A DNA stretch of 64,000 nucleotides, from the NCBI GenBank assembly GCA_965214915.1, contig CBDCCP010000003.1:468440-532439 (forward strand), written 5' to 3'. A program made the translations under genes and the position numbers. Below are positions 10,693-23,537 of this stretch, one piece after another (positions within the stretch are counted from its first letter, which is position 1; each line of letters opens with the position of its first letter). This DNA is from Bryobacterales bacterium. GTDB taxonomy: Bacteria; Acidobacteriota; Terriglobia; Bryobacterales; UBA6623. The notes under the pieces are model-generated. The model did no database searches and had not been told where the DNA came from. It saw nothing but the letters and a program-made list of their open reading frames with translations.

Positions 10693-11580
10693 ATGAAATT
10701 CTTGCTCAAGGCAGCCGCGGCCCTCGCCGGCCTGCTGGCCGTCCTGGCCGTTGCGGCGAGCTTTCATCCCGAAGCGGGCAACGTTTACCGCGCGCTCAAC
10801 CCGAGCGAGGACTACGACACGGAGCCTCCCGCGCTGCCCGACGATCTCGCGGACCCGGCAATCCTGGTTTTCACCAAGACCAACGGGTTCCGCCACGGCG
10901 AAGCGATCGACGCGGGGCTCGCCGTCTTCGAGGAAATGGCCGTGCGCCGCGGTTGGTCGCTCTTTCACACCGAAAACGGCGCGGCCCACAACCCCGAGAC
11001 GCTTTCCCGTTTCCGAGCGGTGATCTGGCACAACGCCAGCGGCGCGCCCGTCAACGAAGAGCAGCGGGCCGCGCTCAAAAATTGGATCGAAAGCGGGGGC
11101 GGCTTCATCGGCATCCACGCCGCCACTGACGACTCGCACTCCGGCTGGCCGTGGTATCAACGGCAACTGGTCGGCGCCCGCTTCATCGGGCACACCCTGG
11201 GGCCGCAATTTCAGCCGGCCGTCATCCGTGTCGAGGACGCCGCGCATCGAGCCATGCGCCGCCTCGGCCCGACCTGGGAGCACACCGCGGAGTGGTACTC
11301 TTACGACCGCAGCGTCCGCGGGCAGCCGGGAGCGCGCGTCCTGGCCACCGTCGACGAAACCACCTACAGCCCCCGCCTGAAGCTGCTCTGGACCGACCGC
11401 GATCTGTCGATGGGCGACCACCCGGTCATCTGGACCCGCGCCTTGGGCCGGGGCCGCGCCTTCTTCTCGGCTCTGGGCCACTCCGCCGAAGCCTACCGCG
11501 GCGCCCCCTACCAAGGCGTTCTGGAAGGCGCCATCGAATGGGCGGCGCGTCTCGGCAGCGAAGCGGATTCCGGCAAGTAA
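10693..11580 (+). CDS. ThuA-like (class I glutamine amidotransferase-like fold) domain protein
   Basis: ILVFTKTNGFRH, GGGFIGIHAATD, EWYSY, HPVIW, GRAFFSALGH. Confidence 0.88.
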   Translation: MKFLLKAAAALAGLLAVLAVAASFHPEAGNVYRALNPSEDYDTEPPALPDDLADPAILVFTKTNGFRHGEAIDAGLAVFEEMAVRRGWSLFHTENGAAHNPETLSRFRAVIWHNASGAPVNEEQRAALKNWIESGGGFIGIHAATDDSHSGWPWYQRQLVGARFIGHTLGPQFQPAVIRVEDAAHRAMRRLGPTWEHTAEWYSYDRSVRGQPGARVLATVDETTYSPRLKLLWTDRDLSMGDHPVIWTRALGRGRAFFSALGHSAEAYRGAPYQGVLEGAIEWAARLGSEADSGK

Positions 11581-11584
11581 CGAG

Positions 11585-14173
11585 TCAGTCCCCGGCTTTG
11601 CCTACCCAGAACGGGCTGGACCAGGCCATGCCGCCGTCGATCTGGCGCACGCGCACGTAGTAGTAGTCGCCCGGCTCGGCGGCGCCGCGGTCGGTGTAGC
11701 GGAACTCCTGGTCGAGCGCTTGCCCGCGCGTCACGATTTGAGCGGAAAGCGCGTCGGTGTGCTCAAGCACGCCGTACTCCTTGCGGACGACCTGGCCGTT
11801 GAAGTCGCCAAGGCGGAAATCGACCTTGTTCGCCGGCAAGCGCTGCGGACGGCGCTCGTAGCCGCCCGACCCCAGCGACTCGCGCGTCGTTTCCATATCC
11901 ACGGTCACCGTCGTATCGGGGCCGGCGCCGGCGAGCTTCAGCAGCAGCGCCTTGCCCCGCCCGCGGGTGTTCATCTCGAAATCGATCCGGTTGCGGTCTT
12001 GACTGTTGCGCGCGGCGCCATAAGTCGCCGGCTGCGTGAACCAGGGATCCTTGTAGTCGATCAGCCGCGCGCCCTTGACGACAACCGCCCCGCGCCAAGG
12101 CCTCCCGCCGCGGGGAACCTGGCGGCGTCCGATAACTTCCGTCGAAGACTCGAAGACGATCTGCAGCCAGGTTTCCTCCGTAACCTCGCTTTCGAGATAC
12201 CGCTTGCTGTAAACCACCTTCCCGTTCTTGATGACGTCGATCGCATCGATCGGTGCGGTCCCGTTGACGCGGCAAGCGATCTCGCGCGCGGCGGCGTTCG
12301 GCTGCCGCCGCCCCATGCGGCTCCCGTTGAGCGTGACGTCGAGAACGATCCGCTCGCCGGTCGTGGCGTATACGGCGCGGTCGCGTAGCGCGCTGAAAAT
12401 CTCGTCGGGGGTATTTTCCCGAGCGACCGCCGCCGCCAGTCCGCCCATCTGGCGGTTCCCGATGCCCGAATAACCCGGGTGGCCGTTGTGGTTGTCGGAG
12501 GCGCCGACAAAGCCGACCTCGAATCCGTTCAGCAGATACTTGTCGCCGAACCAGTCGAATGTGCCGTGGCCCGATTGGATCTCGACCAGCCGCTCCATGT
12601 CGCCGTCGTTCTTGCTCCAATCGCCGGCCTGATGGGCGTGCGGAATGATCAGCACGTCGTCCGTGCCGTTCTGCCTGCGCAGGCCGGCGTAAAGCTCGTC
12701 GAGCAGGGGCGCTTTCTGATTGGGCACGCGGCGGCGTCCGGGCGCGTTGCGGAAGAAGACGTTGTGGTGCCCGCCGTAGAGCAGCCGGGAGGTCCACTCG
12801 AAACCGAGAATGATCGTGAACCGTCCCGGAACGCGGTGCTTCTCCACCATGTTCTGCAGCGTCTTCCATTCGCGGTCGTCCATCCAGATGTCGTGCTCGG
12901 AAAGACTGAGAAAGTCGAGCCGGGCCACGTCGCGCCCGAACTTGTAATAGCCGTCGGGAGACCCCTGCCCTTCCGCAAACGCGGTATGCCCGTGGGTTTC
13001 GCCCCAGAAGACGCGGTAGGCCGGATCGGCTTCGACGCGCACCGGGTTGCTCGCCGCCTGCAGCGAGCCGTCGGCGTTCCTCACGCTGAAGCGGTAGACG
13101 CCCGGCTCGCCGAGGCGCACGTTGTCGAGCTCGACCAGGGCGGGGCTGCCCGCCGCAATCTTGCGCAACGGCTTGCCGTTGACCGACACTTCGAGCGCGG
13201 GCATGACTCCCGACGACAGGTTCTTGCTGCGATCCTCGGCGCGCACCGCCAGAGTGAACGCCTCGTCGGGCTCGACAATCGACGGCGCGACCGCGTTGAC
13301 GTAGCGCACCTCGTCGCGGCCGACGACCTCGAACGAAGGCCACTTCGGCGTCAGCAGATCCCCCTGCCCCTCGAGATCGACCAGGACGTGCAGGATCACT
13401 TGGTCGTTCGAGGACTCCTGCAGCTTCAGGCCCGGTCCGCCGCCGGACGTATCGCCGTATGTGATCGTAATGGTGTCGCCCTCGGCAAGGTCCGCCCCGC
13501 TCAGCCGGAAGGAGAGATTCGACGTGCGAATCAGGAAGCTCAGCCAGTCGCCCCACGGCTCGGCCGGCGTGAAGCGGGCCTGGGGATTGGAGCTGCGCAC
13601 GGTGACGTAGTTCGCCTTGGTGAGATCGTCCGCCTGAAGGTTTGCGCTCCTGCGGCCGCTTTTGCGCAATACGATTCCCCCGCCCGCGGCCATCGGCATC
13701 GCGCCGACCGTGTAGATTTGGGTCAGCGTGACGAACTGCCCGGCGCGGAAGGGGCCGGGCGGCGTCAAGGTCAGCGAGCCGACCGCGTCCGGCTGCTCGT
13801 CCTTGATCTGAAACTCGCGCGTGTAACGCCGGATGAACTCCGGGACCACGGCGACAGGGATCTGCGCGCCGCCCTGCGGCAAGCGCCGCAGCGCCCGGTT
13901 GGCGTTGGCCGTAAGCTGCGGAAAAGCGTCGGGGAAGGGGCCGCCGGTCAACGAGTAGGCGTTGGCCCATTGCCACAGCGTATCGAGCCGCGCGGCCAGC
14001 GTCTCGATGTCCGCGGCGCCGTCTTGCGCCTCGACCTTGAGCCGCTCGACGCGGGCGCGCAGGTCGGGGCTCAGGTAATCGCCGCTATCCGCGGCGTTTC
14101 GGTATTGGGCGGCGGCCGCCGCCAGCAGCAGCGCGCCGAGCAAGAGCAGACCGAGAGCGGTTGGACGTTTCAT
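11585..14173 (-). CDS. Secreted DUF3604/PHP-like metallohydrolase
   Basis: Signal peptide; FWGETHGHT, LSEHD, IPHAH, GFVGASDNH, VYATTG; C-terminal YYYVRVRQ..AWSSP. Confidence 0.8.
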   Translation of the reverse strand: MKRPTALGLLLLGALLLAAAAAQYRNAADSGDYLSPDLRARVERLKVEAQDGAADIETLAARLDTLWQWANAYSLTGGPFPDAFPQLTANANRALRRLPQGGAQIPVAVVPEFIRRYTREFQIKDEQPDAVGSLTLTPPGPFRAGQFVTLTQIYTVGAMPMAAGGGIVLRKSGRRSANLQADDLTKANYVTVRSSNPQARFTPAEPWGDWLSFLIRTSNLSFRLSGADLAEGDTITITYGDTSGGGPGLKLQESSNDQVILHVLVDLEGQGDLLTPKWPSFEVVGRDEVRYVNAVAPSIVEPDEAFTLAVRAEDRSKNLSSGVMPALEVSVNGKPLRKIAAGSPALVELDNVRLGEPGVYRFSVRNADGSLQAASNPVRVEADPAYRVFWGETHGHTAFAEGQGSPDGYYKFGRDVARLDFLSLSEHDIWMDDREWKTLQNMVEKHRVPGRFTIILGFEWTSRLLYGGHHNVFFRNAPGRRRVPNQKAPLLDELYAGLRRQNGTDDVLIIPHAHQAGDWSKNDGDMERLVEIQSGHGTFDWFGDKYLLNGFEVGFVGASDNHNGHPGYSGIGNRQMGGLAAAVARENTPDEIFSALRDRAVYATTGERIVLDVTLNGSRMGRRQPNAAAREIACRVNGTAPIDAIDVIKNGKVVYSKRYLESEVTEETWLQIVFESSTEVIGRRQVPRGGRPWRGAVVVKGARLIDYKDPWFTQPATYGAARNSQDRNRIDFEMNTRGRGKALLLKLAGAGPDTTVTVDMETTRESLGSGGYERRPQRLPANKVDFRLGDFNGQVVRKEYGVLEHTDALSAQIVTRGQALDQEFRYTDRGAAEPGDYYYVRVRQIDGGMAWSSPFWVGKAGD

Positions 14174-14223
14174 TTTGGGAATCCTGCGCCCGCGAAAGGC
14201 CGCGGACTGCCCAAGAGTATACG

Positions 14224-17200
14224 CTACGCGCCCGGCCCGGAATCCGCGGCGGCGGCCCCGCTCTTGCCGGCCGCCAACACGTCGGCCAAGGAGCGGGCCG
14301 CCCTGTACTCAGCCGGCGACCGCCCCGTTTTGAGCGCTTCGAAATGCGCTTTCCCGCATGCGATCTTGGCGCTTTCGACGCCGCGAAGATCGCCGGCAAG
14401 CAGACTGCCTTTCGTCTCGACCACGAAATACAGCCGCTCGCCTTCATCGTCTTCGATCAGCACGGCCCAGTCCGGGTTGTAGCCGCCGAGCGGCGTCGGC
14501 ACGGTGAACCATCCGGGCAGCTTGGCGTACACCTTGACTGCGGCGTTCTTCTCCAGGTCTCGCGCAAAGTCCGCTTCGATCGCGGACTCGTAAACGACCT
14601 GCTCGTAAACCGACTTCTCCGCGTCGAGCATATTCTTCAGATAGCCGGAAAGCTCCTCCGCCTCGAAGAGTTCCTGCGCGTAATAGCTTTCGTCTCCAAG
14701 GCGCTGGTACTTGATGCCGTCCACCAACGCTTGGCGCTTGCAGCGGTCGATCGTTTGCGCGGCAAGCTCGATGAATTGCTGCGGATTGCGTATGAAGTCG
14801 TCCAGGCGGCCGCTGTCCGTCAATATGCGATAGATGCTGCGCCGCGTGAGTTGCGTGCGGTCCTGAAGCTCCGTCAACACGTCGGGCAACTCGATGTCGG
14901 CCTCGTCCAACACTACCGTCGCCGCTCCGGTCGTCTCGGCCGCTTCCACGCCGGCTCGGCCAATGGCGATGCCGGCCTTGCGCCACTGGAGCCGAGTTCT
15001 GGGAATCGCCGGCGCCTCCCGCAGCGCCTGCGTGCATTGCGTGAGCAGCGCCTCGTTATCGAACGCCACGCGGTATGTGGTCTTGTGCTTGATGCGCTCC
15101 CAGAGCGCCTTGAACTCCTCGCTGCACAGCACGGCTTGGCGCGGGCGCACTGTGCGCCGCTCGTCGGCGTTTTTGACCTCCAGTCCTCCAGCGAGCTTGC
15201 GCAGCGCCTTGACGATCTCCGCCTGCTGCGCGGCAAATTCTTCGGGCGCACGGAAGGTCTTGTCCTGAAGCGCCTTGCGCAGGGAATCCTGTATCCGCCC
15301 CTGCGCGTCGATGTAGCTTTGCGTCTTCAGCCCGTCCCAGATCTTCTGCGACGCCTCGAAGCCGAGAGGCGCAACCTGTCCGTCCTTGCCTACAGCCGGA
15401 ATCGCCGCGAACCGGTGCGGCTCCACGATGCCGAAGCGCATCCCAGTGTCGGCTTCGATCTCCCGCTGCAAGTTCTCGGCGAACTCTTCGTAACTCTCCA
15501 TCGCAACGATCGTGAGCGTGTTTACATCGAAGCCGCGCAGTCGCGCGCCCTGCTGGTTGACGCACAGGCGCAGGCCGCGCCCGATGGTCTGCCGCCGCTC
15601 GCGCTCGCTGCGCATGTCGCGGAGCGTGCAAATCTGGAAGACGTTGGGGTTGTCCCAGCCCTCGCGCAGCGCCGAATGGGAGAAAATGAACTTGAGCGGC
15701 GTCTCCAGGCTCAAGAGCCTCTCCTTGTCTTTCATAATCAGGTTGTAGGCGCGTTCCGCGTTGTCGCGGTTAGTTTGGTTGTTTTCGGCGGTGTCCGTCC
15801 AGCCGCCTCTCTTGTCGATGGAAAAGTAGCCGTTGTGGACTTCGGCCGCGGCCGCGGCGAGATCCACGCCCGCAAAGAGCCCGCGGTAGTCCGGGTGGCC
15901 GGCCAGACGCCGGTACTCTTCTTCGAACATACGGGCGTAGATGCCCTTGACGGCGTTGCCCTCTTCGTCGTACTGCCGGTACCGCTTCACGGCGTCGATG
16001 AAGAAGAGGCTGAGCACTTTGATCCCCTGCGGGCGCAGGCGTTTCTCCTTGTCGAAATGCTGCCGTATGGTGCGGCGGATCATCTCGCGATGCACAGCGA
16101 GAGAGTCCACGTCGCCCCAAGCATCGCCCAAGCACAGGTATTTCTCGCCGCCGGGCACACGGAGTTCGACAAATTCTCTGCCTTTCTCGACGCGGATCTC
16201 GCCGATGCGGCAATCGCGGTAAACGGCGCGTTTGGTAATCCGCTCGAGATCGTCGCCGTCCTGAACGTTGACTTCTCGGCGTCGCACCTTCCCGAACCGC
16301 TCGACATCGAGATCGACCCTGGCTCCGATGACTCCTCGCCGGTTGCTCACCGCAATCGGGCGCACATAGGGCTTGTTGTGCGCGTCCTCGACCGTGGCCG
16401 CCGACACTTCGATCCGCTTCACCAGCTTGCGCTCGTAGGCGTCGATGGCGTCCAGCCGATAGACCATATGATGCTCGTCCGCGTGCGTCGCCGAGTAACG
16501 CAGAGTGCAGAGCGGATTCATGGCCGCAAGCGCCTCCCTGCCGCGGCCCTGCAAGCCGCCGTCCACGCTCTGCGGCTCGTCCACGATCAGGATGGGCCGC
16601 GTCGCCCGGATGAGGTCGACCGGCTTCTCGCCGCCGGTCTTCTCGCTGTCTTTGTAGAGGTTGTTGACATCCTTCTTGTTGATGGCCCCGACCGTCACGA
16701 TCATGATCTGAATCTGTGCACCGGCGGCGAAGTTGCGCACCTGCCCCAGCTTCGCCGAATCGTAGAGGAAATACTCGAAGGGCGTCCCCGAATAGAGCGC
16801 CCGGAAGTGCTCCTCGGTAATCTGCAGCGATTTGTAAACGCCCTCCTTGATCGCCACCGAGGGCACGACGATGACGAACTTGCTGAAGCCGTAACGCTTG
16901 TTCAACTCGAAAATCGTGCGCAGGTAGACGTAGGTCTTGCCGGTACCGGTCTCCATCTCTACGGTGAAGTCGCCGGAATCCAGAGAAGCGGACGGCGGCA
17001 GGCCGTTGCGAAGCTGGATACCTTTCAGGTTTTCGAGGAGATCCCCGTCAGGCAGAGTCAGCCGGTTGCCGATGCCAAGATCGTTTTCGGCAAAGCCGAG
17101 GCGTTCCTGGCGCTCCGCCGGGTCACGCATGACGGTGAACTCGGTGCGGCAGACCTCCTGCCCGCGGAACAGACCGCAGACGGCCTCGACCGCCTCAAGC

Positions 17201-17235
17201 TGAAAGTCGAGATTGGGCTCGAAATGGAGTTTCAT
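14224..17235 (-). CDS. res: Type III restriction enzyme, Res subunit
   Basis: MKLHFEPNLDFQ start, METGTGKTYVY, DEPQ, YSATH, LREGWDNPNVFQIC, QTIGRGLR, and the nuclease motif YNPDW...VVETKG. Confidence 0.95.
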   Translation of the reverse strand: MKLHFEPNLDFQLEAVEAVCGLFRGQEVCRTEFTVMRDPAERQERLGFAENDLGIGNRLTLPDGDLLENLKGIQLRNGLPPSASLDSGDFTVEMETGTGKTYVYLRTIFELNKRYGFSKFVIVVPSVAIKEGVYKSLQITEEHFRALYSGTPFEYFLYDSAKLGQVRNFAAGAQIQIMIVTVGAINKKDVNNLYKDSEKTGGEKPVDLIRATRPILIVDEPQSVDGGLQGRGREALAAMNPLCTLRYSATHADEHHMVYRLDAIDAYERKLVKRIEVSAATVEDAHNKPYVRPIAVSNRRGVIGARVDLDVERFGKVRRREVNVQDGDDLERITKRAVYRDCRIGEIRVEKGREFVELRVPGGEKYLCLGDAWGDVDSLAVHREMIRRTIRQHFDKEKRLRPQGIKVLSLFFIDAVKRYRQYDEEGNAVKGIYARMFEEEYRRLAGHPDYRGLFAGVDLAAAAAEVHNGYFSIDKRGGWTDTAENNQTNRDNAERAYNLIMKDKERLLSLETPLKFIFSHSALREGWDNPNVFQICTLRDMRSERERRQTIGRGLRLCVNQQGARLRGFDVNTLTIVAMESYEEFAENLQREIEADTGMRFGIVEPHRFAAIPAVGKDGQVAPLGFEASQKIWDGLKTQSYIDAQGRIQDSLRKALQDKTFRAPEEFAAQQAEIVKALRKLAGGLEVKNADERRTVRPRQAVLCSEEFKALWERIKHKTTYRVAFDNEALLTQCTQALREAPAIPRTRLQWRKAGIAIGRAGVEAAETTGAATVVLDEADIELPDVLTELQDRTQLTRRSIYRILTDSGRLDDFIRNPQQFIELAAQTIDRCKRQALVDGIKYQRLGDESYYAQELFEAEELSGYLKNMLDAEKSVYEQVVYESAIEADFARDLEKNAAVKVYAKLPGWFTVPTPLGGYNPDWAVLIEDDEGERLYFVVETKGSLLAGDLRGVESAKIACGKAHFEALKTGRSPAEYRAARSLADVLAAGKSGAAAADSGPGA

Positions 17236-17273
17236 CGCCGCCCCCCGAGCGGTCCGGCGTCAACCGGAATCAC
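17232..17273 (-). pseudogene. N-terminal stub of a PIN/VapC toxin (13 codons)
   Basis: GTG overlaps the antitoxin stop; reads MIPVDAGPLGGRR*, resembling MILVDAGPLVAL of VapC; its TGA overlaps the res ATG (ATGA). Confidence 0.65.
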
Positions 17274-17530
17274 CGCCCGTGCTTCTTTCGAATCGCTTCG
17301 GCGACTGCGGCCTTGGCCTGGGAAGCCGGCCCAATGGCGCTGCCGCCGGGCCCCAGGTCAAGACGGCGGTAGATATCGTAAGGGTACTCGGCCGTTGTTT
17401 CGCGCACGGTCGCCGCGTAAGCATGCAGGCCGCGTTTTAGCACCTCCGAGATCGACAGGCCGGTCCGTTGCCGCAGAGCGGCCAACGCCGCTTCGTCATC
17501 GTCATCGAGTCGAACTGTCCTGATGCTCAT
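17270..17530 (-). CDS. CopG/ribbon-helix-helix antitoxin-like protein
   Basis: MSIRTVRLDDDDEAALAALRQRTGLSISEVLKRGL; GAGGAG RBS. Confidence 0.85.
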   Translation of the reverse strand: MSIRTVRLDDDDEAALAALRQRTGLSISEVLKRGLHAYAATVRETTAEYPYDIYRRLDLGPGGSAIGPASQAKAAVAEAIRKKHGR

Positions 17531-17547
17531 CTACGCTCCTCGCTTTC

Positions 17548-17566
17548 GTAATACAGATTGCAATAC
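17548..17566. promoter_or_regulatory. Candidate RHH autoregulatory operator
   Basis: GTAATAC-AGATT-GCAATAC: two near-palindromic heptamers just upstream of the RBS of 17270..17530. Confidence 0.5.
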
Positions 17567-17645
17567 GGTACGGGCTGGGCAGTCAACCCACCCTTGTACC
17601 GTGCCCAAAGCCGCGCCGCCGGAAGATGCAGGCCGGGAACATCGT

Positions 17646-18113
17646 CTACTCCCCAAGGTCGTCGATGACATCCCGAATATAGTCTCGAAGCCACAGCTCC
17701 GGTTCGGAATGCGACTCGAGGACGTTCCGCATGTCCGGGCCGCCCCACGATTCCGCCGCTTGCACCGCGGCGTCTCGAATCTCCACGTCGGCCATAGCCA
17801 ATCCGCCGCGCACGAGTTCGGCGCGCCATGAACCCGTCCCTGGAGACGTTTGACGCCCCAAGCAACGCAGAACCGATGCCGCAAAGCTCGGCTGCGCAGC
17901 GTCCAGGGAGAAACTCCGCAACCACGCGAAAACAGGCCGGTCCCCGGCGGACCGCAAAGCCTCCGCAAGAATCTCCTCGGTGGGATGATTCATGCCGTCC
18001 TCAAGGGGGGCGGCTTCGAAGGCCGCATGCAGTTTGCCCGCGAGTTGTATCCGTTCCCGCGCCACAGCAGCATCACCCGCTTCGGTCCGGAACAATTCGG
18101 ATTCGACAACCAT
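17646..18113 (-). CDS. Hypothetical alpha-helical (HEAT-like) protein
   Basis: 155 aa; DVEIRDAAVQAAESWGG HEAT-like motif; starts 3 nt after the HEPN gene stop. Confidence 0.65.
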   Translation of the reverse strand: MVVESELFRTEAGDAAVARERIQLAGKLHAAFEAAPLEDGMNHPTEEILAEALRSAGDRPVFAWLRSFSLDAAQPSFAASVLRCLGRQTSPGTGSWRAELVRGGLAMADVEIRDAAVQAAESWGGPDMRNVLESHSEPELWLRDYIRDVIDDLGE

Positions 18114-18116
18114 GAG

Positions 18117-18497
18117 CTACTTCGTTGTTTCCGCTATCTTCTTCAAAGCCGGCAACAATTCCGGAATATCTCTCTGAACGATGTCCCAGATCAGATCGGC
18201 GTCTATCCCCAGGTACCCGTGAACGATGCGATTGCGCGCGCCTACTATCGTTCGCCAGGGGACTTCCGGGTAAGTCTCGCGGACTGCGTTCGGGAGGTGG
18301 GTAGCCGCTTCGCCAATCAACTCGAGGTTCCGTAGAGCCGCATCGTAAGTACGGGAGTCGGCGACGAAAGCGGTTTGGTCCATTCCGGCTGTGTAGGATT
18401 GAACTTTCTCGGCGAATTCGATCATGTCCTCGGCGAATTCGATCATGTCTGTCACGTAGAGACGCCATTGTCGTTGTTCCTGCTCTCTACTACACAT
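18117..18497 (-). CDS. HEPN/DUF86 ribonuclease toxin (HepT-like)
   Basis: RNLELIGEAA, PEVPWRTIVGARNRIVHGY (R-x4-H-x-Y), IWDIV; overlaps the MNT stop; carries an in-frame duplication of DMIEFAE. Confidence 0.92.
   Translation of the reverse strand: MCSREQEQRQWRLYVTDMIEFAEDMIEFAEKVQSYTAGMDQTAFVADSRTYDAALRNLELIGEAATHLPNAVRETYPEVPWRTIVGARNRIVHGYLGIDADLIWDIVQRDIPELLPALKKIAETTK
18408..18449. repeat. Perfect 21-bp tandem duplication inside the HEPN gene
   Basis: CTCGGCGAATTCGATCATGTC twice (18408-18428, 18429-18449). Confidence 0.95.
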
Positions 18498-18780
18498 GGA
18501 CCGCATCCTTCTCGACATAAGGGCGCAACTCCGGGCGCAGCGCCCTATCCGTGACCAGATCGACGGGACAGCCGAGCAGATCCTCCAGATAGAATTGAGC
18601 GCCGAAGTAGCGCTTGGATGTAGTAGGCCCGTTAAAACTGACCAGGATATCGATATCGCTGCCTTCTGTCGTCTGGCCGCGGGCAGTCGATCCGAAAAGC
18701 GCGATATCGACGACGCCGAACCGTTGCGCCAACACAGATTTATGCGCTCGTAACAGCGCCAGCGCCTTATCTCTGGCCAT
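18490..18780 (-). CDS. Minimal nucleotidyltransferase antitoxin (MntA-like)
   Basis: ALFGSTARG...SDIDILV (GS-x10-DxD), LEDLLGCPVDLVT. Confidence 0.92.
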   Translation of the reverse strand: MARDKALALLRAHKSVLAQRFGVVDIALFGSTARGQTTEGSDIDILVSFNGPTTSKRYFGAQFYLEDLLGCPVDLVTDRALRPELRPYVEKDAVHV

Positions 18781-18796
18781 CGATGCCTCTTTCGTA

Positions 18797-18829
18797 CGTG
18801 ACTTCAAACTCCCGGAGTTAGAAGTCACG
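18797..18829. promoter_or_regulatory. 33-bp near-perfect palindrome upstream of the MNT gene
   Basis: CGTGACTTC-A-AACTCC-C-GGAGTT-A-GAAGTCACG. Confidence 0.6.
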
Positions 18830-18856
18830 GCTAGATTCGAGATGGAGCTTCATCAT
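18818..18856 (-). pseudogene. Degenerate copy of the res 5' end
   Basis: (M)MKLHLESSRDF*L versus MKLHFEPNLDFQL of res; ATG overlaps the DUF2806 stop. Confidence 0.6.
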
Positions 18857-19710
18857 TCCGTCTCCGACTTCGGTAAATACTGCTTCCATCGGTCATTAAC
18901 ATACTCCCAGAATCCTTCTACGGACTTGCTTCCGCATATCGGTGCAAGATCCTGGCCGATGCGTGTAAGAAGCGCATTTCCAGTGACAAGTTCGTTGTTG
19001 GCATCTTGGAGCATCTCAAGAGCCAACGGCCTGCCGTAGTAATGCACGGAGAATCTCTTGGGAAGGTTAATTCTTTTGAAGCGAGCCAACCCATCGAATT
19101 TAATAAAACCAATACTGTCGAGGTGATTTAAAGTACCGTGATTAATACCGTGTCTATTATAGATTTCAGCCTTCGCATCAAACACCAGTGGCACCAAACT
19201 TTCAAAATTCCAGACAAACCCGCAGAGTTTTGTGAACAGATCGGCGTCAGTTTTATCGAGATATGAAAGAGAATTGACGGTCCTCTTCAAATAAGTTCCC
19301 GGCTCGTTCGCTTCACCAGCCAGAACCCGCGACCATAGATCCTGCATCTCATTATCAGACACGATTCTACATTTATCGAAAAAGTTGACAGGCCAATCGT
19401 CTTCGATGGAATCCGGTTTCGCGTCTTCATTCAATCCCGGAAAAGCTTTAGCGGTAATATCTTCCATGTTCTTCTGGCGTTGCGCTTCCTCCTCAATAAA
19501 TCGATGCGCGGCTCGTCGATGTAAGTCGGTTACCGCAATTTCAGATTGCGCCTTTATCAACGCTGCTTCTGCCTCAGCCTTTGCAACTCTCTTGATCTGA
19601 TAGGGCGCAAAGAAACCGCCCACTGCGTTCGATACCTTCTTTATCAGGGTATCGGCAGGCTTCGACAGGTCATCCAAACTTACGAGAGAATTGGAAGTAT
19701 TGAGGGGCAT
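18853..19710 (-). CDS. DUF2806-like protein (AT-richer cargo between mod and res)
   Basis: AEAEAALIKA...EEEAQRQKNMEDI...DDW.VNFFDKCRIVSDNEMQDLWSRVLAGEANEPGTY; AAAGGAG RBS; visibly lower GC than the flanks. Confidence 0.8.
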   Translation of the reverse strand: MPLNTSNSLVSLDDLSKPADTLIKKVSNAVGGFFAPYQIKRVAKAEAEAALIKAQSEIAVTDLHRRAAHRFIEEEAQRQKNMEDITAKAFPGLNEDAKPDSIEDDWPVNFFDKCRIVSDNEMQDLWSRVLAGEANEPGTYLKRTVNSLSYLDKTDADLFTKLCGFVWNFESLVPLVFDAKAEIYNRHGINHGTLNHLDSIGFIKFDGLARFKRINLPKRFSVHYYGRPLALEMLQDANNELVTGNALLTRIGQDLAPICGSKSVEGFWEYVNDRWKQYLPKSETE

Positions 19711-19723
19711 GGTGACTCCTTTC

Positions 19724-21691
19724 CTACAGACTCCGCACGTTTTCCAGCCCGTGCTGCTCCAGGATGGCGGCAAGATTGGTCTTGGCTACGTCGTCGGCAA
19801 AGGCGCTGTCGCGGAAGACAATGGTGCTGTCGTCGGTGGACGCCAACTGCTCATGCCATGCGACGATGCCCAGGGCCAGCGGCTCGGCCTCATCCCGAGC
19901 GATGTTCACGTCGAGGCAGGCGACCAACTGGCCGTTGCCGATGCAGAATACGGACTTGCCCGCGATGGCCCGCTTCTGGATGGGTGTACAGAGATCGAAC
20001 CCGAACTTGAGCGACAGTTCGTAAAGGATGTCCAACTCGCCCCGGTCACTCTTAATGTGGTCGATGCTGTCGAGTAAGGTTTCTTCCAGGTCGTTGCAGT
20101 CGAGTTCCCAGGCACGAACGTTGGACTTGTCGAGCTTGAAAACGCGAAAACCGAGATCGCCGGCGAACAGCGGGTTTTCATCGCGGATATTGTTTCCAGC
20201 ACGACGGATACGTTCTTTTGTGAGTTCGGCGATGTTGCATGGTTTGCCGAGTTTGTCACAAAAGTTGGCAGCGGTTTTCTGATCCTTGTCGCTCGGATCG
20301 AGATATTGGGGCAACTGAACGAGAATATACTTTCTCCCGCTGCTATCGGAGGCATTTTGAGCCATGACGGCATGCGCAGTTGTTCCCGAACCGGCAAAGA
20401 AATCAAGGATAATATCGTTCGGTTGCGTAGCCATGAACACACAGCGCTGCAGCATCGCGACCGGTTTCGGGTGATCGAACGCATCGCCCATGTCCATGCG
20501 CCCCAACTCAATGGTTCCTTGCTCATTGATGAACCCAGTTTCCAGCCAGATGGATTTCGGTTTGGTTGTGCTCTTCCGCGATTTCTCGTATACGTTCCAC
20601 TCGCCGTCACGACGTTTTCGCGCGACCAGTACGGGGGAGGCTATGTTCAAATCGTAACCCGATATCTTGTCGCGACTCCATCGCCAACATCCTTCCTCGC
20701 CCCTGCTGTTACGGGGGAGCACCTCAATACAAGCATCACCGACTGGGGTTAGGGATACCCGTGCATAACCACATTCGTCCAGGGTATCGGGGAGAACGTA
20801 AAGAGGAAAAAACAGATTAGGTCTGTTGAAACGACTAAACTTCGGATTTCGATTACGTAACTCCCAAAGATCGAAAGGTCCAAACGAGTCGCTGAACGGA
20901 AGAGCGCCGTCCGGTTTTTCTAACTCATTCAACACCGCGGAATCTCCTTTCGAGTAGAGAACAAGGAATTCGTGAGTCTTGGCGATTTGTTTATATGTCT
21001 GGCCTCGTTTGTTGGATTGAACAATGACTTGCGCTTGAAACTGCTCTTCGCCGAAAACTTCATCCATGATGCGGCGGAGGTTTCCTGCTTCCGTGTCGTC
21101 AACCGAAACAGCAATGAATCCGTCACCGGCAAGCAGGTTTCTCGCCAATTTTAACCGCGGATACATCATGTTCAACCAGTCGGTATGGAACCGTCCCGAG
21201 GCTTCCGTATTGGACGACAGCTTGCGGTTCTCGCCGTCGATCTGGCCGGTCAGTTCCAGGTAGTTTTTGATGTTGTCGCGGTAGTCGTCGGGATACACAA
21301 AGTCTTTCCCCGTGTTATACGGCGGGTCGATATAGATCAGCTTGACTTTCCCGGCGTAGCTTTTCTGCAGCAGCTTGAGCACTTCCAGATTGTCGCCCTC
21401 GATCATCAGGTTTTGCGTGGTGTCCCAATCGACGCTTTCCTCCGGGCAGGGGCGCAGCGTGCCGGTCGAAGGCGTCAGCGCGAGTTGCCGGGCGCGGCGC
21501 TTGCCGTGCCAATTCAGGCCGTACTTCTCCTCGCGCTCTTCAACTTCGCCGCCGAGAAGCTGCTTGAGCGTTTCGAAGTCGATCTTCCCCTCGGCACACG
21601 CCTCGGGAAACAGAGCCCTCAGGCGCTCCACGTTCCCGGCAACGATGTCCGTCGAGCGCGTCTCCGGGTCGTCTGTGGAGAGCTTTTTCAC
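19724..21691 (-). CDS. mod: Type III RM methyltransferase, Mod subunit
   Basis: EKYGLNWHGK, IEGDNLEVLK, IYIDPPYNTG, HTDWLNMMYPRL, FDHPKP, LDFFAGSGTT; AT-richer central target-recognition region; GTG start with GAGGAGG RBS. Confidence 0.95.
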   Translation of the reverse strand: MKKLSTDDPETRSTDIVAGNVERLRALFPEACAEGKIDFETLKQLLGGEVEEREEKYGLNWHGKRRARQLALTPSTGTLRPCPEESVDWDTTQNLMIEGDNLEVLKLLQKSYAGKVKLIYIDPPYNTGKDFVYPDDYRDNIKNYLELTGQIDGENRKLSSNTEASGRFHTDWLNMMYPRLKLARNLLAGDGFIAVSVDDTEAGNLRRIMDEVFGEEQFQAQVIVQSNKRGQTYKQIAKTHEFLVLYSKGDSAVLNELEKPDGALPFSDSFGPFDLWELRNRNPKFSRFNRPNLFFPLYVLPDTLDECGYARVSLTPVGDACIEVLPRNSRGEEGCWRWSRDKISGYDLNIASPVLVARKRRDGEWNVYEKSRKSTTKPKSIWLETGFINEQGTIELGRMDMGDAFDHPKPVAMLQRCVFMATQPNDIILDFFAGSGTTAHAVMAQNASDSSGRKYILVQLPQYLDPSDKDQKTAANFCDKLGKPCNIAELTKERIRRAGNNIRDENPLFAGDLGFRVFKLDKSNVRAWELDCNDLEETLLDSIDHIKSDRGELDILYELSLKFGFDLCTPIQKRAIAGKSVFCIGNGQLVACLDVNIARDEAEPLALGIVAWHEQLASTDDSTIVFRDSAFADDVAKTNLAAILEQHGLENVRSL

Positions 21692-21713
21692 GCGGCCTCC
21701 TCAGTTCGATGGA

Positions 21714-21929
21714 TCAGACCGCCTTGTACGCGCGCACGGGCAGCGCTTCCGTTTCCAACGTGGAAAGATCGAGGAGCTTGGAGGCGCGATCGATGTCAAA
21801 ACCCATGACATCCCCGGTGGCGTCAAGATCGACATTGAGCCCATCCGCAACTTCGCGCGTCTCGACGCCCGGCCCGGCCTTGAACTCGACATACAGACTG
21901 TCGGTTTCGGGATAGTAGCGCAGCTTCAT
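21714..21929 (-). CDS. DUF2283-family small protein (TA-associated; usual partner gene absent)
   Basis: MKLRYYPETDSLYVEF...VETREVADGLNVDLD..GDVMGFDID. Confidence 0.85.
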   Translation of the reverse strand: MKLRYYPETDSLYVEFKAGPGVETREVADGLNVDLDATGDVMGFDIDRASKLLDLSTLETEALPVRAYKAV

Positions 21930-21948
21930 GGTTTTTTTGAAGTATGCG

Positions 21949-21981
21949 CGCGCTGCATTTAATCCGCAGCGAGCAACTCAT
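21949..21981 (-). pseudogene. N-terminal stub of a RelE/ParE toxin
   Basis: ATG inside the antitoxin 3' end reads MSCSLRIKCSA, resembling MSYSLRIKxSA of RelE; similarity ends there. Confidence 0.6.
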
Positions 21982-22180
21982 GCCTGACCCGATTCCAGTC
22001 CAGGACCGGGTCGGCGGGATCGCGAAGCCGCTCCAGAGCTACGGCGATGTCGTCGAAGTCTTCCAGATACCGCTCCAAGGCTTGGCGCACGATGTCGGCG
22101 CGGCTCCGCTTGAGTTCCGCGGCGGCTGCATCCAGCGCTTCGACGAGTTCATCGGACAGACGTGCGGTTATTCGGCGCAT
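21959..22180 (-). CDS. RelB/CopG-like RHH antitoxin
   Basis: MRRITARLSDELVEALDAAAAELKRSRADIVRQALERYLEDFDD...DPVLDW; alternative in-frame ATG at 22204. Confidence 0.88.
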   Translation of the reverse strand: MRRITARLSDELVEALDAAAAELKRSRADIVRQALERYLEDFDDIAVALERLRDPADPVLDWNRVRHELLAAD

Positions 22181-22200
22181 ACGCCCCCCTTCATTCGATT

Positions 22201-22275
22201 TCATACGGTTCCGGACGTCGCTGTCAAGAACACATCGGCGGCGGCGAACAGGATGTCACCGGCCGTCGCCGCCAT
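22201..22275 (-). pseudogene. Degenerate N-terminal stub of a PIN toxin
   Basis: MAATAGDILFAAADVFLTATSGTV* resembles ...ILFVDTNVLLTAT; overlaps the FitA-like gene end; its TGA overlaps the ATG at 22204. Confidence 0.55.
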
Positions 22276-22486
22276 AGATCGCGTCTCTGCTCCACGATGC
22301 CTCGCGGCCGGTCTGGACCGTCACCAGATCGAGCGCAGGCGCTTCCGCCTCGGGCGGCGCCATTTCGGCGGCACGGTCGAGGATAATACGCAACTCGTCC
22401 TGCAGCGAGCGGCCATGGCTGCGCGCCAAACGTTGCAGCGCATGGAGCGTGCGCGGCTCTATATCTTCGATGCGCAGCGAACTCAT
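22256..22486 (-). CDS. FitA/Arc-like RHH antitoxin
   Basis: MSSLRIEDIEPRTLHALQRLARSHGRSLQDELRIIL...WSRDAIY; TACACT ends 6 nt before the ATG, suggesting a leaderless transcript. Confidence 0.85.
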   Translation of the reverse strand: MSSLRIEDIEPRTLHALQRLARSHGRSLQDELRIILDRAAEMAPPEAEAPALDLVTVQTGREASWSRDAIYGGDGR

Positions 22487-22532
22487 ACCGATAGTGTAGA
22501 GATATGCTTTCCTTAGCGGGCAGCGGCGAAGC

Positions 22533-23537
22533 ATGACCTTGACGGCGATGGCGATGGGCTACTTCCGCAGCCGCGCGCTCTGCGCGGCCGCGCGGCTGGG
22601 CGTCGCCGACGCGCTCGGCAGCGGCGAGCGCTCCGTGGAGCGGCTGGCCGCCGCCTGCCGCGCCGACCCGGTCGCCCTGCGCCGTCTGCTGCGCGCTCTG
22701 GCGAGCTTCGGCATCGCGGTCGAGACCCGGCCCGGCTTCTTCCGTCTGACGGAACGCGGCATGCCCCTGCGCAAGGACGCCCCGCATTCGGAATGGGCCG
22801 CAGTCGTCTTCTGGGCCGACCTGCTCGCTGACGAGTGGCGCCGGCTTGCCGAGTGCGTCCGGGAAGGAAAACCGGCGGCGGACGTGCGGCCCGCGGGCGC
22901 CGCGCGGCTCTGGGAGGAAGACCCCCAAGCGCCGCAAATCTTCCGCGCCGTGATGGGCACGGCGCCCGCGGAAGACTACATGCCGCTCGCGCGGGCGTGG
23001 GACTTCTCCCAATACCGCCTGGTTGCCGACCTCGGCTGCGGCGGGGGCGCTCTGACCGCGGCGATTCTCGGCGCCTGCCCCAACGTGCGCGGCCTGCTCG
23101 TCGACCGGCCCGAAGCCGTCGCCAAGGCGGCCGCCCGCCTGCGGGCCGAGGGGCTCGGCGCGCGCTGCGATTTCACGGCGGCCGATTTGCTGGAGCATGT
23201 CCCGCCCGGCGCGGACGTTCACGTTTTGAAGAGCGTGCTGCACGGCTATGCGGACGAAGACGCCGCCGCGATTCTGCGCCGCTGCCGGGACGCCCTTCCC
23301 GCCAACGGCCGCCTGCTGTTGATCGAGTTCGTTTTGCCGGAAGTCGTCGACCGGCCCGACGAGGGTCTCGAACAGAGGCTGATGAGCGACCTCAACATGC
23401 TGGCCGTGACCGGAGGAAGGGAGCGCACCGCGGCGGAATGGAAAAGCCTGCTGCGCCAAGCCCGCTTCGATTACCTGTCGTCGACCGAGGCGGCGCCGCA
23501 AGCGGCTGCGATCATCGAAGCGGCGCCCAGCGGTTGA
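22533..23537 (+). CDS. SAM-dependent O-methyltransferase (COMT/ASMT-like)
   Basis: N-terminal dimerisation HTH (AAARLGVADAL), ADLGCGGG, LKSVLHG, DLNML..GGRERT. Confidence 0.9.
   Translation: MTLTAMAMGYFRSRALCAAARLGVADALGSGERSVERLAAACRADPVALRRLLRALASFGIAVETRPGFFRLTERGMPLRKDAPHSEWAAVVFWADLLADEWRRLAECVREGKPAADVRPAGAARLWEEDPQAPQIFRAVMGTAPAEDYMPLARAWDFSQYRLVADLGCGGGALTAAILGACPNVRGLLVDRPEAVAKAAARLRAEGLGARCDFTAADLLEHVPPGADVHVLKSVLHGYADEDAAAILRRCRDALPANGRLLLIEFVLPEVVDRPDEGLEQRLMSDLNMLAVTGGRERTAAEWKSLLRQARFDYLSSTEAAPQAAAIIEAAPSG

Follow-up and report, generated by a model that had tools for sequence, protein, structure and literature searches.

We analysed a stretch of 64,000 nucleotides (nt) from a Bryobacterales bacterium of the Acidobacteriota (assembly GCA_965214915.1, contig CBDCCP010000003.1, positions 468,440 to 532,439), hereafter the window, in which a Type III restriction-modification (R-M) locus carries three intact antitoxin genes, each followed by a short N-terminal remnant of the toxin that would normally accompany it. 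This arrangement probably came about as toxin-antitoxin (TA) cassettes in a variable R-M island of Type III eroded in the ordinary way, toxin first. Coordinates are positions of the 64-kb window; G000 denotes the window's own genome, and Gnnn and Lnnn the compared genomes and loci. Every gene of the string, from the FitA-like antitoxin gene through the restriction gene res, lies on the minus strand (Table 1).

We propose that a Type III operon situated in a variable chromosomal hotspot would have gathered TA cassettes and accessory genes upstream of the methyltransferase gene mod and between mod and res, namely a FitA-PIN pair, a RelB-ParE/RelE pair, a DUF2283 gene, an MNT-HepT pair and a CopG-PIN pair. 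The locus would then erode by deletions, and in three of the cassettes the toxin would have been lost first. A deletion sparing the antitoxin would leave 9 to 20 codons of the toxin N-terminus, N-terminal because the toxin start lies 4 to 23 nt inside the antitoxin gene, and each deletion would stop just ahead of the start region of the next gene. Without its toxin, an antitoxin would no longer be needed for survival and would decay next, as broken copies in sister genomes show. The intact antitoxins of the window may thus mostly be a snapshot of the middle stage of a two-step TA erosion. An earlier note on this DNA had suggested that it may have another explanation, a selected library of antitoxins joined to a restriction system rather than decay, which fares poorly against the same site in related genomes.

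Remnants of three toxins and of a restriction subunit

The toxins that normally follow these antitoxins were identified by searching for antitoxin homologues in 400 sampled genomes of the phylum plus the window's own (401 in all). CopG has matches in 11 of the 401 genomes, its own included; six strong ones from other genomes were examined and four weak ones left out. After five of the six lies a PIN open reading frame (ORF) of 137-138 amino acids (aa), overlapping the antitoxin gene by 4 nt and starting MILVDTGPLVALF or similar, and the one of these that was run against Pfam matched PIN; the sixth homologue has an in-frame stop in the antitoxin, and its toxin is absent. RelB has matches in 66 of the 401 genomes. 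We examined 29 loci, one of which lacked a local match, and 23 of the remaining 28 homologues are followed by a ParE/RelE protein of 84-101 aa starting V(I/S)(F/Y)SI(R/K)IKASAAKELK; the antitoxin and toxin genes overlap by 23 nt in most of the closest homologues, other overlaps also occurring, and two of these ORFs tested with Pfam were ParE_toxin. FitA matches are present in 10 of the 401 genomes, with a sole full-length homologue (L052, 42% identity), whose PIN partner of 153 aa (Pfam PIN, 1.7e-11) starts MVMTAGERLFCDTNVLLSAV 20 nt ahead of the stop of the FitA homologue. A metagenome scan with FitA returned one distant relative, 42% identical over 49 residues, a fused RHH-DUF433-like protein of no value for dating.

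The short ORFs behind the three antitoxins of the window match the N-termini of these cognate toxins, each at the cognate overlap of 20, 23 or 4 nt, as the earlier note had anticipated when it described each toxin as reduced to a stub. They were ranked by position-anchored scans of all six frames of the window. PIN remnant 1 begins MAATAGDILFAAADVFLTAT, 20 nt ahead of the FitA stop, and so shares both overlap and N-terminus with the PIN of L052; in an ungapped scan it ranks first of 95,764 scan windows, with a score of 35 against 27. Its catalytic xDTN site, which is CDTN in the cognate toxin and GNAN in G002, reads AAAD, each codon standing one base away from a codon for V, D, T or N, as previously noted; the first conserved Asp is thus replaced by Ala, and no intact PIN adjoins FitA. 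The tail of this remnant has no resemblance by eye to the C-terminus of the L052 PIN. The junction at which it ends is common to G000, G005 and G002.

The ParE/RelE remnant opens with an ATG at 21981 and belongs to an ORF of 21823-21981 that afterwards runs out of frame through DUF2283; it ranks joint first of 101,257 scan windows. Here the earlier description needs correction: the short ORF straight after the RelB stop (MQRAHTSKKP and a stop codon) lies in a different frame and is not the toxin remnant. PIN remnant 2 starts within the CopG stop, with a 4-nt overlap (GTGA), and its own stop overlaps the res start (ATGA); it ranks first of 112,461 with an 8-residue matrix and second of 105,801 with a 12-residue matrix. 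A fourth stub, behind DUF2806, had been described as res-like, and the scan bears this out: it ranks second of 109,047, and only the true start of res, which reads MKLHFEPNLDF, scores higher.

Profile searches, which had been suggested as a check, gave a divided answer. The ribbon-helix-helix (RHH) antitoxins and DUF2283 were matched, but full-length hidden Markov models (HMMs) of the cognate toxins, with which the six-frame translation of the window was searched by hmmsearch (ParE/RelE and PIN2) or phmmer (PIN1), found no significant match to the stubs: PIN remnant 1 came fourth, at E 5.7, and the ParE/RelE and PIN2 remnants fell outside the top eight. Since the stubs are invisible to full-length profiles, the case for remnants rests on their position, on the overlap geometry and on the longer versions found in relatives.

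One could argue from this failure, and from the mere 9 to 20 recognisable residues of each stub, that the stubs are short ORFs which arose by chance, the RHH genes being ordinary stand-alone regulators that were never paired with toxins here. We consider this extremely improbable, as the stubs rank at the top, or second to res, among about 100,000 scan windows and do so at the predicted position and overlap, while G002 has longer collinear versions and G004 a near-full-length ParE/RelE pseudogene. The three toxin stubs are real N-terminal remnants of the cognate toxins.

The same site in related genomes

A search of relatives with res found homologues in 4 of 40, at 78-100% identity, and a further genome, G004, has the syntenic site without res. 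In four congeners (G002, G004, G005 and G006) the locus lies between the same two flanking genes, and each holds it in another stage of decay, antitoxins included, contrary to what a library of selected antitoxins would lead one to expect.

G005 and the window are collinear, and a block of about 10.7 kb, which takes in an 862-aa gene and the R-M island as far as RelB, hardly differs between the two genomes: 4 of 3012 nt are different in res, 3 of 1968 in mod and none of 261 in CopG. Outside the block they differ at 15 of 231 nt in FitA, at 73 of 1005 in the next gene, and at 16 positions within 11000-11249. This near-identity, set between flanks that are 6-7% apart, points to a recent exchange of the block between the two species, presumably by recombination. 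Its right-hand break lies near the junction of PIN remnant 1, so that FitA falls outside. Within the block, RelB of G005 is frameshifted by a 1-nt deletion at the position corresponding to 22132 of the window, whereas its HepT is intact and its ParE/RelE remnant has about 16 codons, as in G000.

Decay has taken a different course in G002. FitA and RelB each have a large internal deletion; the ParE/RelE stub is 23 codons long and stands directly ahead of mod; of HepT only the first 12-18 codons survive, and there is no HEAT-like gene. The second PIN stub runs to 24 codons (VILIDADLLVALFGATDCGYCRSE, ending in a stop), beginning VILIDADLLVALFG. The res stub that follows DUF2806 in G000 and G005 occupies the same place in G002 in a more decayed form, and a pair of genes of the candidate system PDC-M19A/B lies between CopG and res (L007 10903-12677, PADLOC 1.5e-97 and 1.7e-108).

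The mod-res gap of G006 contains a SIR2-APAZ gene and a short class I pAgo gene (L008 7622-10884, PADLOC E 4.7e-188 and 4.7e-195). MNT has an internal deletion in this genome. Downstream of res lie CopG and a second, intact copy of RelB, with PIN2 reduced to about 3 codons and ParE/RelE to about 18, the latter lacking a start codon. G004 has lost most of the R-M system; RelB is intact, and ParE/RelE is nearly full length, with one frameshift. FitA of G004 has an internal deletion with end points unlike those of G002, and about 30-37 N-terminal codons are left of mod, joined to a piece of the HEAT-like gene. The DUF2283 gene is missing from both G002 and G004.

In none of the five genomes of the genus that carry the locus was an intact PIN or ParE found there. 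In G016, which belongs to another genus, FitA-like and PIN genes form an intact pair upstream of mod, and between mod and res lie a DUF4258 gene and a small, unassigned partner ORF. CopG, 86% identical in G002 and 76% in G006, stands directly upstream of res in G000 and G005, is separated from it by the two PDC-M19 genes in G002, and lies downstream of it in G006. About 10 nt before res resemble the upstream sequence of res in G016, and the segment upstream of RelB is common to G000, G002 and G004.

Because these stages are seen in G002, G004, G005, G006 and G016, the ancestral layout would have consisted of complete TA pairs around and inside the operon, whose toxins were then inactivated in several ways, with antitoxins and even R-M genes decaying after them. 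From the same comparison we infer the order of events, and the loss of the toxins may have been either favoured or tolerated. Since res, mod (in G004) and HepT (in G002) leave the same kind of N-terminal stub, such stubs are a general deletion scar of a tightly packed operon with overlapping genes, and not something special to toxins, which counts against a selected library.

Selection on the antitoxins

Several observations weigh against erosion as a sufficient account. The ratio of non-synonymous to synonymous substitution rates (dN/dS, by Nei-Gojobori) is 0.19-0.29 for RelB, 0.20-0.31 for CopG, 0.18 for MNT and, between G000 and G005, 0.21 for FitA (9 synonymous and 6 non-synonymous changes). 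The comparison genes give 0.22-0.31 for res, 0.22-0.29 for a 334-aa flanking gene and 0.13-0.17 for the 862-aa flanking gene, so that the intact antitoxins (0.19-0.31) are level with res and with one of the flanking genes, indicating purifying selection. For FitA, 6 or fewer non-synonymous changes out of 15 have a binomial p of 0.005 under neutrality, and as the PIN1 junction is common to G000, G005 and G002, the FitA changes between G000 and G005 post-date the loss of the toxin. FitA thus seems to have been maintained for some time after its toxin was gone. This, the strongest evidence for the explanation of the earlier note, amounts to 15 substitutions in one genome pair, and FitA is internally deleted in G002 and G004. 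The purifying selection foreseen in the earlier note is therefore present, but only for FitA can it be dated after toxin loss; the RelB and CopG ratios are not separable into a part before and a part after.

Other points on the same side concern the sampling and the locus itself. The locus is carried by only five genomes of the genus, which are not independent of one another, and the single-base indels in RelB of G005 and ParE of G004 come from single-contig assemblies and could be assembly errors. Three orphan RHH genes and a partnerless DUF2283 gene within 5.3 kb form a real cluster, to be compared with 4 orphans among 10 RHH matches in the remaining 5.29 Mb. Moreover, of the four stubs, three have their end precisely in an ATGA overlap with the following ORF, which could reflect selected translational coupling rather than accident.

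Part of this would follow if one or more antitoxins were kept by selection as immunity to addiction or to toxins, against incoming plasmids or phages with related PIN or ParE toxins. The concept of chromosomal anti-addiction antitoxins reportedly goes back to Saavedra De Bast and colleagues in 2008. An antitoxin encoded on the chromosome could shield the cell from post-segregational killing when a plasmid carries a related toxin; the classical case is a complete chromosomal TA pair. Such retention would account for the low dN/dS of the intact copies, including FitA after the shared PIN deletion, for the clustering of orphans inside a defence locus, and for the recent exchange between species, as one block, of a part of the R-M island (11500-22210, without FitA). 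However, the same antitoxins are broken or deleted at this site in G002, G004, G005 and G006, and are thus dispensable in sister genomes, and no target toxin is identifiable here, which is unlike the classical anti-addiction case. Furthermore, when amino-acid changes were compared between the N- and C-terminal parts of the antitoxins, the C-terminal part, presumed to bind the toxin, was not clearly spared.

The rest of the G000 genome does not help this explanation either. Above the Pfam cut-offs it has 19 PIN and 7 ParE/RelE matches. It contains no close paralogues of the lost toxins that the antitoxins might neutralise, the best identity being 27-43%. The 7 RHH_1 and 6 FitA-like matches include the three antitoxins of the R-M locus. 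Six of the other ten adjoin a toxin (one a ParE with an internal stop, one a PIN seen only by tblastn), and four have no intact toxin, with no R-M gene seen in the 1.5-2 kb examined around them. One of these four, at L172 218-560 (G000:C1:429517-429860), is followed by a 12-codon PIN-like stub, MKDREAAFVDAS and a stop, and then by a Clp-like gene; another, at L171 236-850 (G000:C1:1877035-1877650), has behind it a degenerate PIN-like ORF with AIVDSGPL; those at L170 and L173 have no toxin adjoining. Orphans with stubs but without a nearby R-M gene imply that orphan antitoxins are not tied to restriction genes, even though the locus does concentrate them, and the link between the two that had been suggested holds to that extent only. 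Altogether, the data argue weakly for an anti-addiction or library reading of the orphan antitoxins, and we regard selected retention as unlikely, if worth keeping in mind, next to toxin-first erosion.

A possible regulatory role

The ATGA overlaps bear on a further alternative, in which the RHH proteins, FitA at the head of the string and CopG before res, would have been exapted as operon repressors, and the toxin stubs as short ORFs that couple the next gene's translation to that of the antitoxin. CopG, in particular, might use a promoter and operator of its own to drive res through the 13-codon stub and so delay or limit restriction in the manner of a C-protein. The C-proteins of Type II R-M systems are helix-turn-helix proteins with conserved C-boxes and a fixed position. 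CopG resembles them as a small DNA-binding protein just upstream of the restriction gene, with translational overlap along CopG, stub and res; it differs from them in belonging to the RHH antitoxins and in having no constant place with respect to res from one relative to the next.

The start and stop codons of PIN remnant 2, which overlap the CopG stop and the res start, fit such a role, as do the ATGA overlaps with the next ORF at the ends of PIN remnant 1 and of the short ORF behind RelB, and the purifying selection on FitA, the first gene of the string. So does a segment of about 60 nt upstream of CopG, which is preserved in the alignment of G000, G002 and G006 despite three different contexts of CopG. 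Read by eye, it contains TTGACT-like and TACAAT-like hexamers and a repeated GTATT, and is probably the promoter and operator of the cassette itself. On the other side, the place of CopG relative to res is not conserved (G000 and G005 against G002 against G006), and no RHH family is among the 25 commonest Pfam families of the ORFs found in mod-res gaps elsewhere (see below). A consensus scan for promoters and terminators over 14000-22700 did not list the segment and gave nothing above shuffled sequence, finding 4 promoter-like sites where 2.4 were expected and 7 terminator-like sites where 9.0 were. We therefore hold regulatory exaptation to be decidedly improbable; if true, it would mean that dead TA cassettes give a Type III system a C-protein-like control of establishment.

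Layout of the locus and embedded genes

The features of the locus are listed in Table 1, in the order in which they are read on the minus strand.

Table 1. Features of the Type III R-M locus and its surroundings, in window coordinates
Feature	Position	Strand	Evidence and remarks
FitA-like RHH antitoxin, 76 aa, intact	22256-22486	-	Pfam FitA-like_RHH, E 5e-8; 92% identical in G005
PIN remnant 1, MAATAGDILFAAADVFLTATSGTV and stop	22201-22275	-	24-codon ORF, about 19 codons recognisable; catalytic xDTN now AAAD
RHH_1 antitoxin (RelB/ParD-type), intact	21959-22180 (longest ORF to 22204)	-	Pfam RHH_1, E 2.6e-10
ParE/RelE remnant, about 16 codons, MSCSLRIKCSARILQK	21931-21981	-	23-nt overlap with the 3' end of RelB
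DUF2283 protein, 71 aa, without its usual upstream partner	21714-21929	-	Pfam DUF2283, E 7.9e-14
mod, methyltransferase, intact	19724-21691	-	Pfam N6_N4_Mtase, E 2.8e-34; PADLOC MTase_III, 2.6e-210, full length
DUF2806 protein, between mod and res	18853-19710 (ORF to 19773)	-	Pfam DUF2806, E 1.5e-33
res 5' remnant, MMKLHLESSRDF and stop	18818-18856	-	12 codons; overlaps the DUF2806 stop
MNT nucleotidyltransferase (antitoxin of MNT-HepT), intact	18490-18780	-	Pfam NTP_transf_2, E 4.4e-18; PADLOC PDC-S09
HepT (HEPN) toxin, intact	18117-18497 (ORF to 18518)	-	Pfam HepT-like, E 2.3e-31
HEAT-like protein, 155 aa	17646-18113	-	Only Pfam match a sub-threshold HEAT_2, E 0.013
Conserved promoter/operator-like segment upstream of CopG	17531-17600	-	About 60 nt kept in G000, G002 and G006
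CopG-type RHH antitoxin, 86 aa, intact	17270-17530	-	Pfam RHH_1, E 1.9e-5
PIN remnant 2, VIPVDAGPLGGRR and stop	17232-17273	-	13-codon ORF, 9 codons align to the cognate PIN N-terminus
res, restriction subunit, 1003 aa, intact	14224-17235	-	Pfam ResIII, DEAD, RE_endonuc; PADLOC REase_III, E 0, residues 1-985 of 1003
Block of about 10.7 kb (862-aa gene and R-M island to RelB)	about 11500-22210		Nearly identical to G005; both flanks about 6-7% different

Pfam and PADLOC agree on a co-directional string with Type III mod and res, and on three intact antitoxins, in keeping with the original description. By these assignments the locus is a Type III R-M system with intact mod and res, and the string from FitA to res would form one operon. 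Its G+C content is 45-64%, against about 68% in the flanks. The genes mod and res have the same orientation and stand 2.5 kb apart, with five genes and two stubs in the interval. The centre of mod (20416-21144) has no DNA alignment to the mod of G002, G006 or G016, while both ends align at 77-91% identity; this would be expected if the target-recognition domain, and hence the methylated motif, varied among these relatives. The DUF2806 gene is also present in G005 and G002, and a PADLOC scan of its product gave no match.

We also considered, and rejected, that the string might be an array of integron cassettes. Its intergenic spaces, at 0-50 nt, are too short for attC-type sites, with the exception of a single gap of 115 nt, which is the region upstream of CopG.

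MNT and HepT look like an intact type VII TA pair by their sequences, the Rx4H motif (RNRIVH) being readable in the HepT translation, and HepT is the only embedded toxin of the window that is not a remnant. HepT also has, close to its N-terminus, a tandem duplication of 21 nt (18408-18428), which repeats seven residues and is not found in G005.

The neighbouring HEAT-like protein has nothing in Pfam at E 0.01 or below and nothing in PADLOC, and its Atlas clusters are all hypothetical, some with HEAT_2. A homologue with 69% identity lies in the mod-res gap of a distant bacterium (L094 8030-8500), where there is no MNT-HepT and the neighbours have no Pfam family.

DUF2283 does stand here without a partner, as had been remarked: in at least 9 of 22 homologues it is preceded by a conserved protein of about 80 aa with no Pfam family at E 0.01 or below. 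In L148, L152, L154, L159, L160, L163, L167 and L168 this protein overlaps the DUF2283 gene by 4 nt and has a C-terminus of the form LRVVTLxDGxTxHNAFxDRxF. It may be an undescribed partner of DUF2283, possibly a toxin. The homology of the DUF2283 gene of the window to L148 and L149 spans exactly the stretch from ATG to stop.

The mod-res gap as a collecting site

We then surveyed the res family with one genome per species (80 loci, L067-L146, from many phyla), and the distance between mod and res could be measured in 68. It is 40 nt or less in 30 of these, 41-449 nt in 6, and at least 450 nt in 32. A Pfam scan of 37 of the 46 ORFs in the 32 long gaps, 9 short or doubtful ones being omitted, found SLFN_AlbA_2/HATPase_c_4 (4), RhuM (3), DUF1016/YhcG (3), Macro (3) with DarT (2), Fic (2) and AIG2 (2), together with single cases of Abi_2, GmrSD, AAA_21, SocA_Panacea, TIR_2, PLDc_2 and a DUF4258 and HicB-like pair. 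These gene contents suggest that insertion between mod and res is common in the surveyed Type III family. Keyword searches of open-access text found no account of the arrangement described here, nor of Type III mod-res gaps as a collecting site.

Relation to known systems

By the default path of TA erosion published in a recent study of Photorhabdus, the toxin is lost before the antitoxin (Belot et al., 2026, Mol Biol Evol, PMC13617665). There, 30 of 80 predicted TA systems are pseudogenes, mostly through truncation of the toxin, and the pseudogene copies affect the toxin alone in 185 cases, both genes in 186 and the antitoxin alone in 8. That work agrees with the present locus in having toxins truncated first and antitoxins later, at spots of high turnover, and in small TA islets that are swapped by homologous recombination at their flanks. 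The present case, in a different phylum, is unlike it in that several TA families are stacked in one Type III R-M operon and in that restriction genes of relatives are themselves scarred by N-terminal stubs of this kind.

R-M operons with toxin and Abi genes inside them, or linked to them, have been described, examples being PrrC in the Type Ic EcoprrI locus, RhuM and Fic/Doc (Anantharaman et al., 2013, PMC3710099; EcoSal review, PMC12707154). Similarly to those operons, small toxin-type genes lie between the subunits here, and RhuM, Fic, Abi_2 and HEPN also occur in the mod-res gaps that we surveyed. However, the operons described there are mainly of Type I, with active toxins thought to back up restriction (PMC3710099; PMC12707154), whereas three of the embedded toxins of the window are dead. 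The immigration control region of E. coli, as outlined in the EcoSal review, offers another parallel, a fixed site between conserved genes where R-M and defence content is swapped, with the difference that the variable part here includes the interior of the operon, that is, the mod-res gap (PMC12707154). The stretches examined showed neither an integrase nor a tRNA anchor.

These results do not overturn current views, and the general principle is already in print. The locus is rather a clear case in which two known processes come together, the erosion of TA cassettes beginning with the toxin, and the accumulation and turnover of accessory defence genes in R-M operons, and the series of five genomes presents every intermediate stage at one syntenic site. 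For the mining of defence islands, the presence of foreign genes between mod and res in about half of the surveyed Type III loci (32 of 68) may prove useful.

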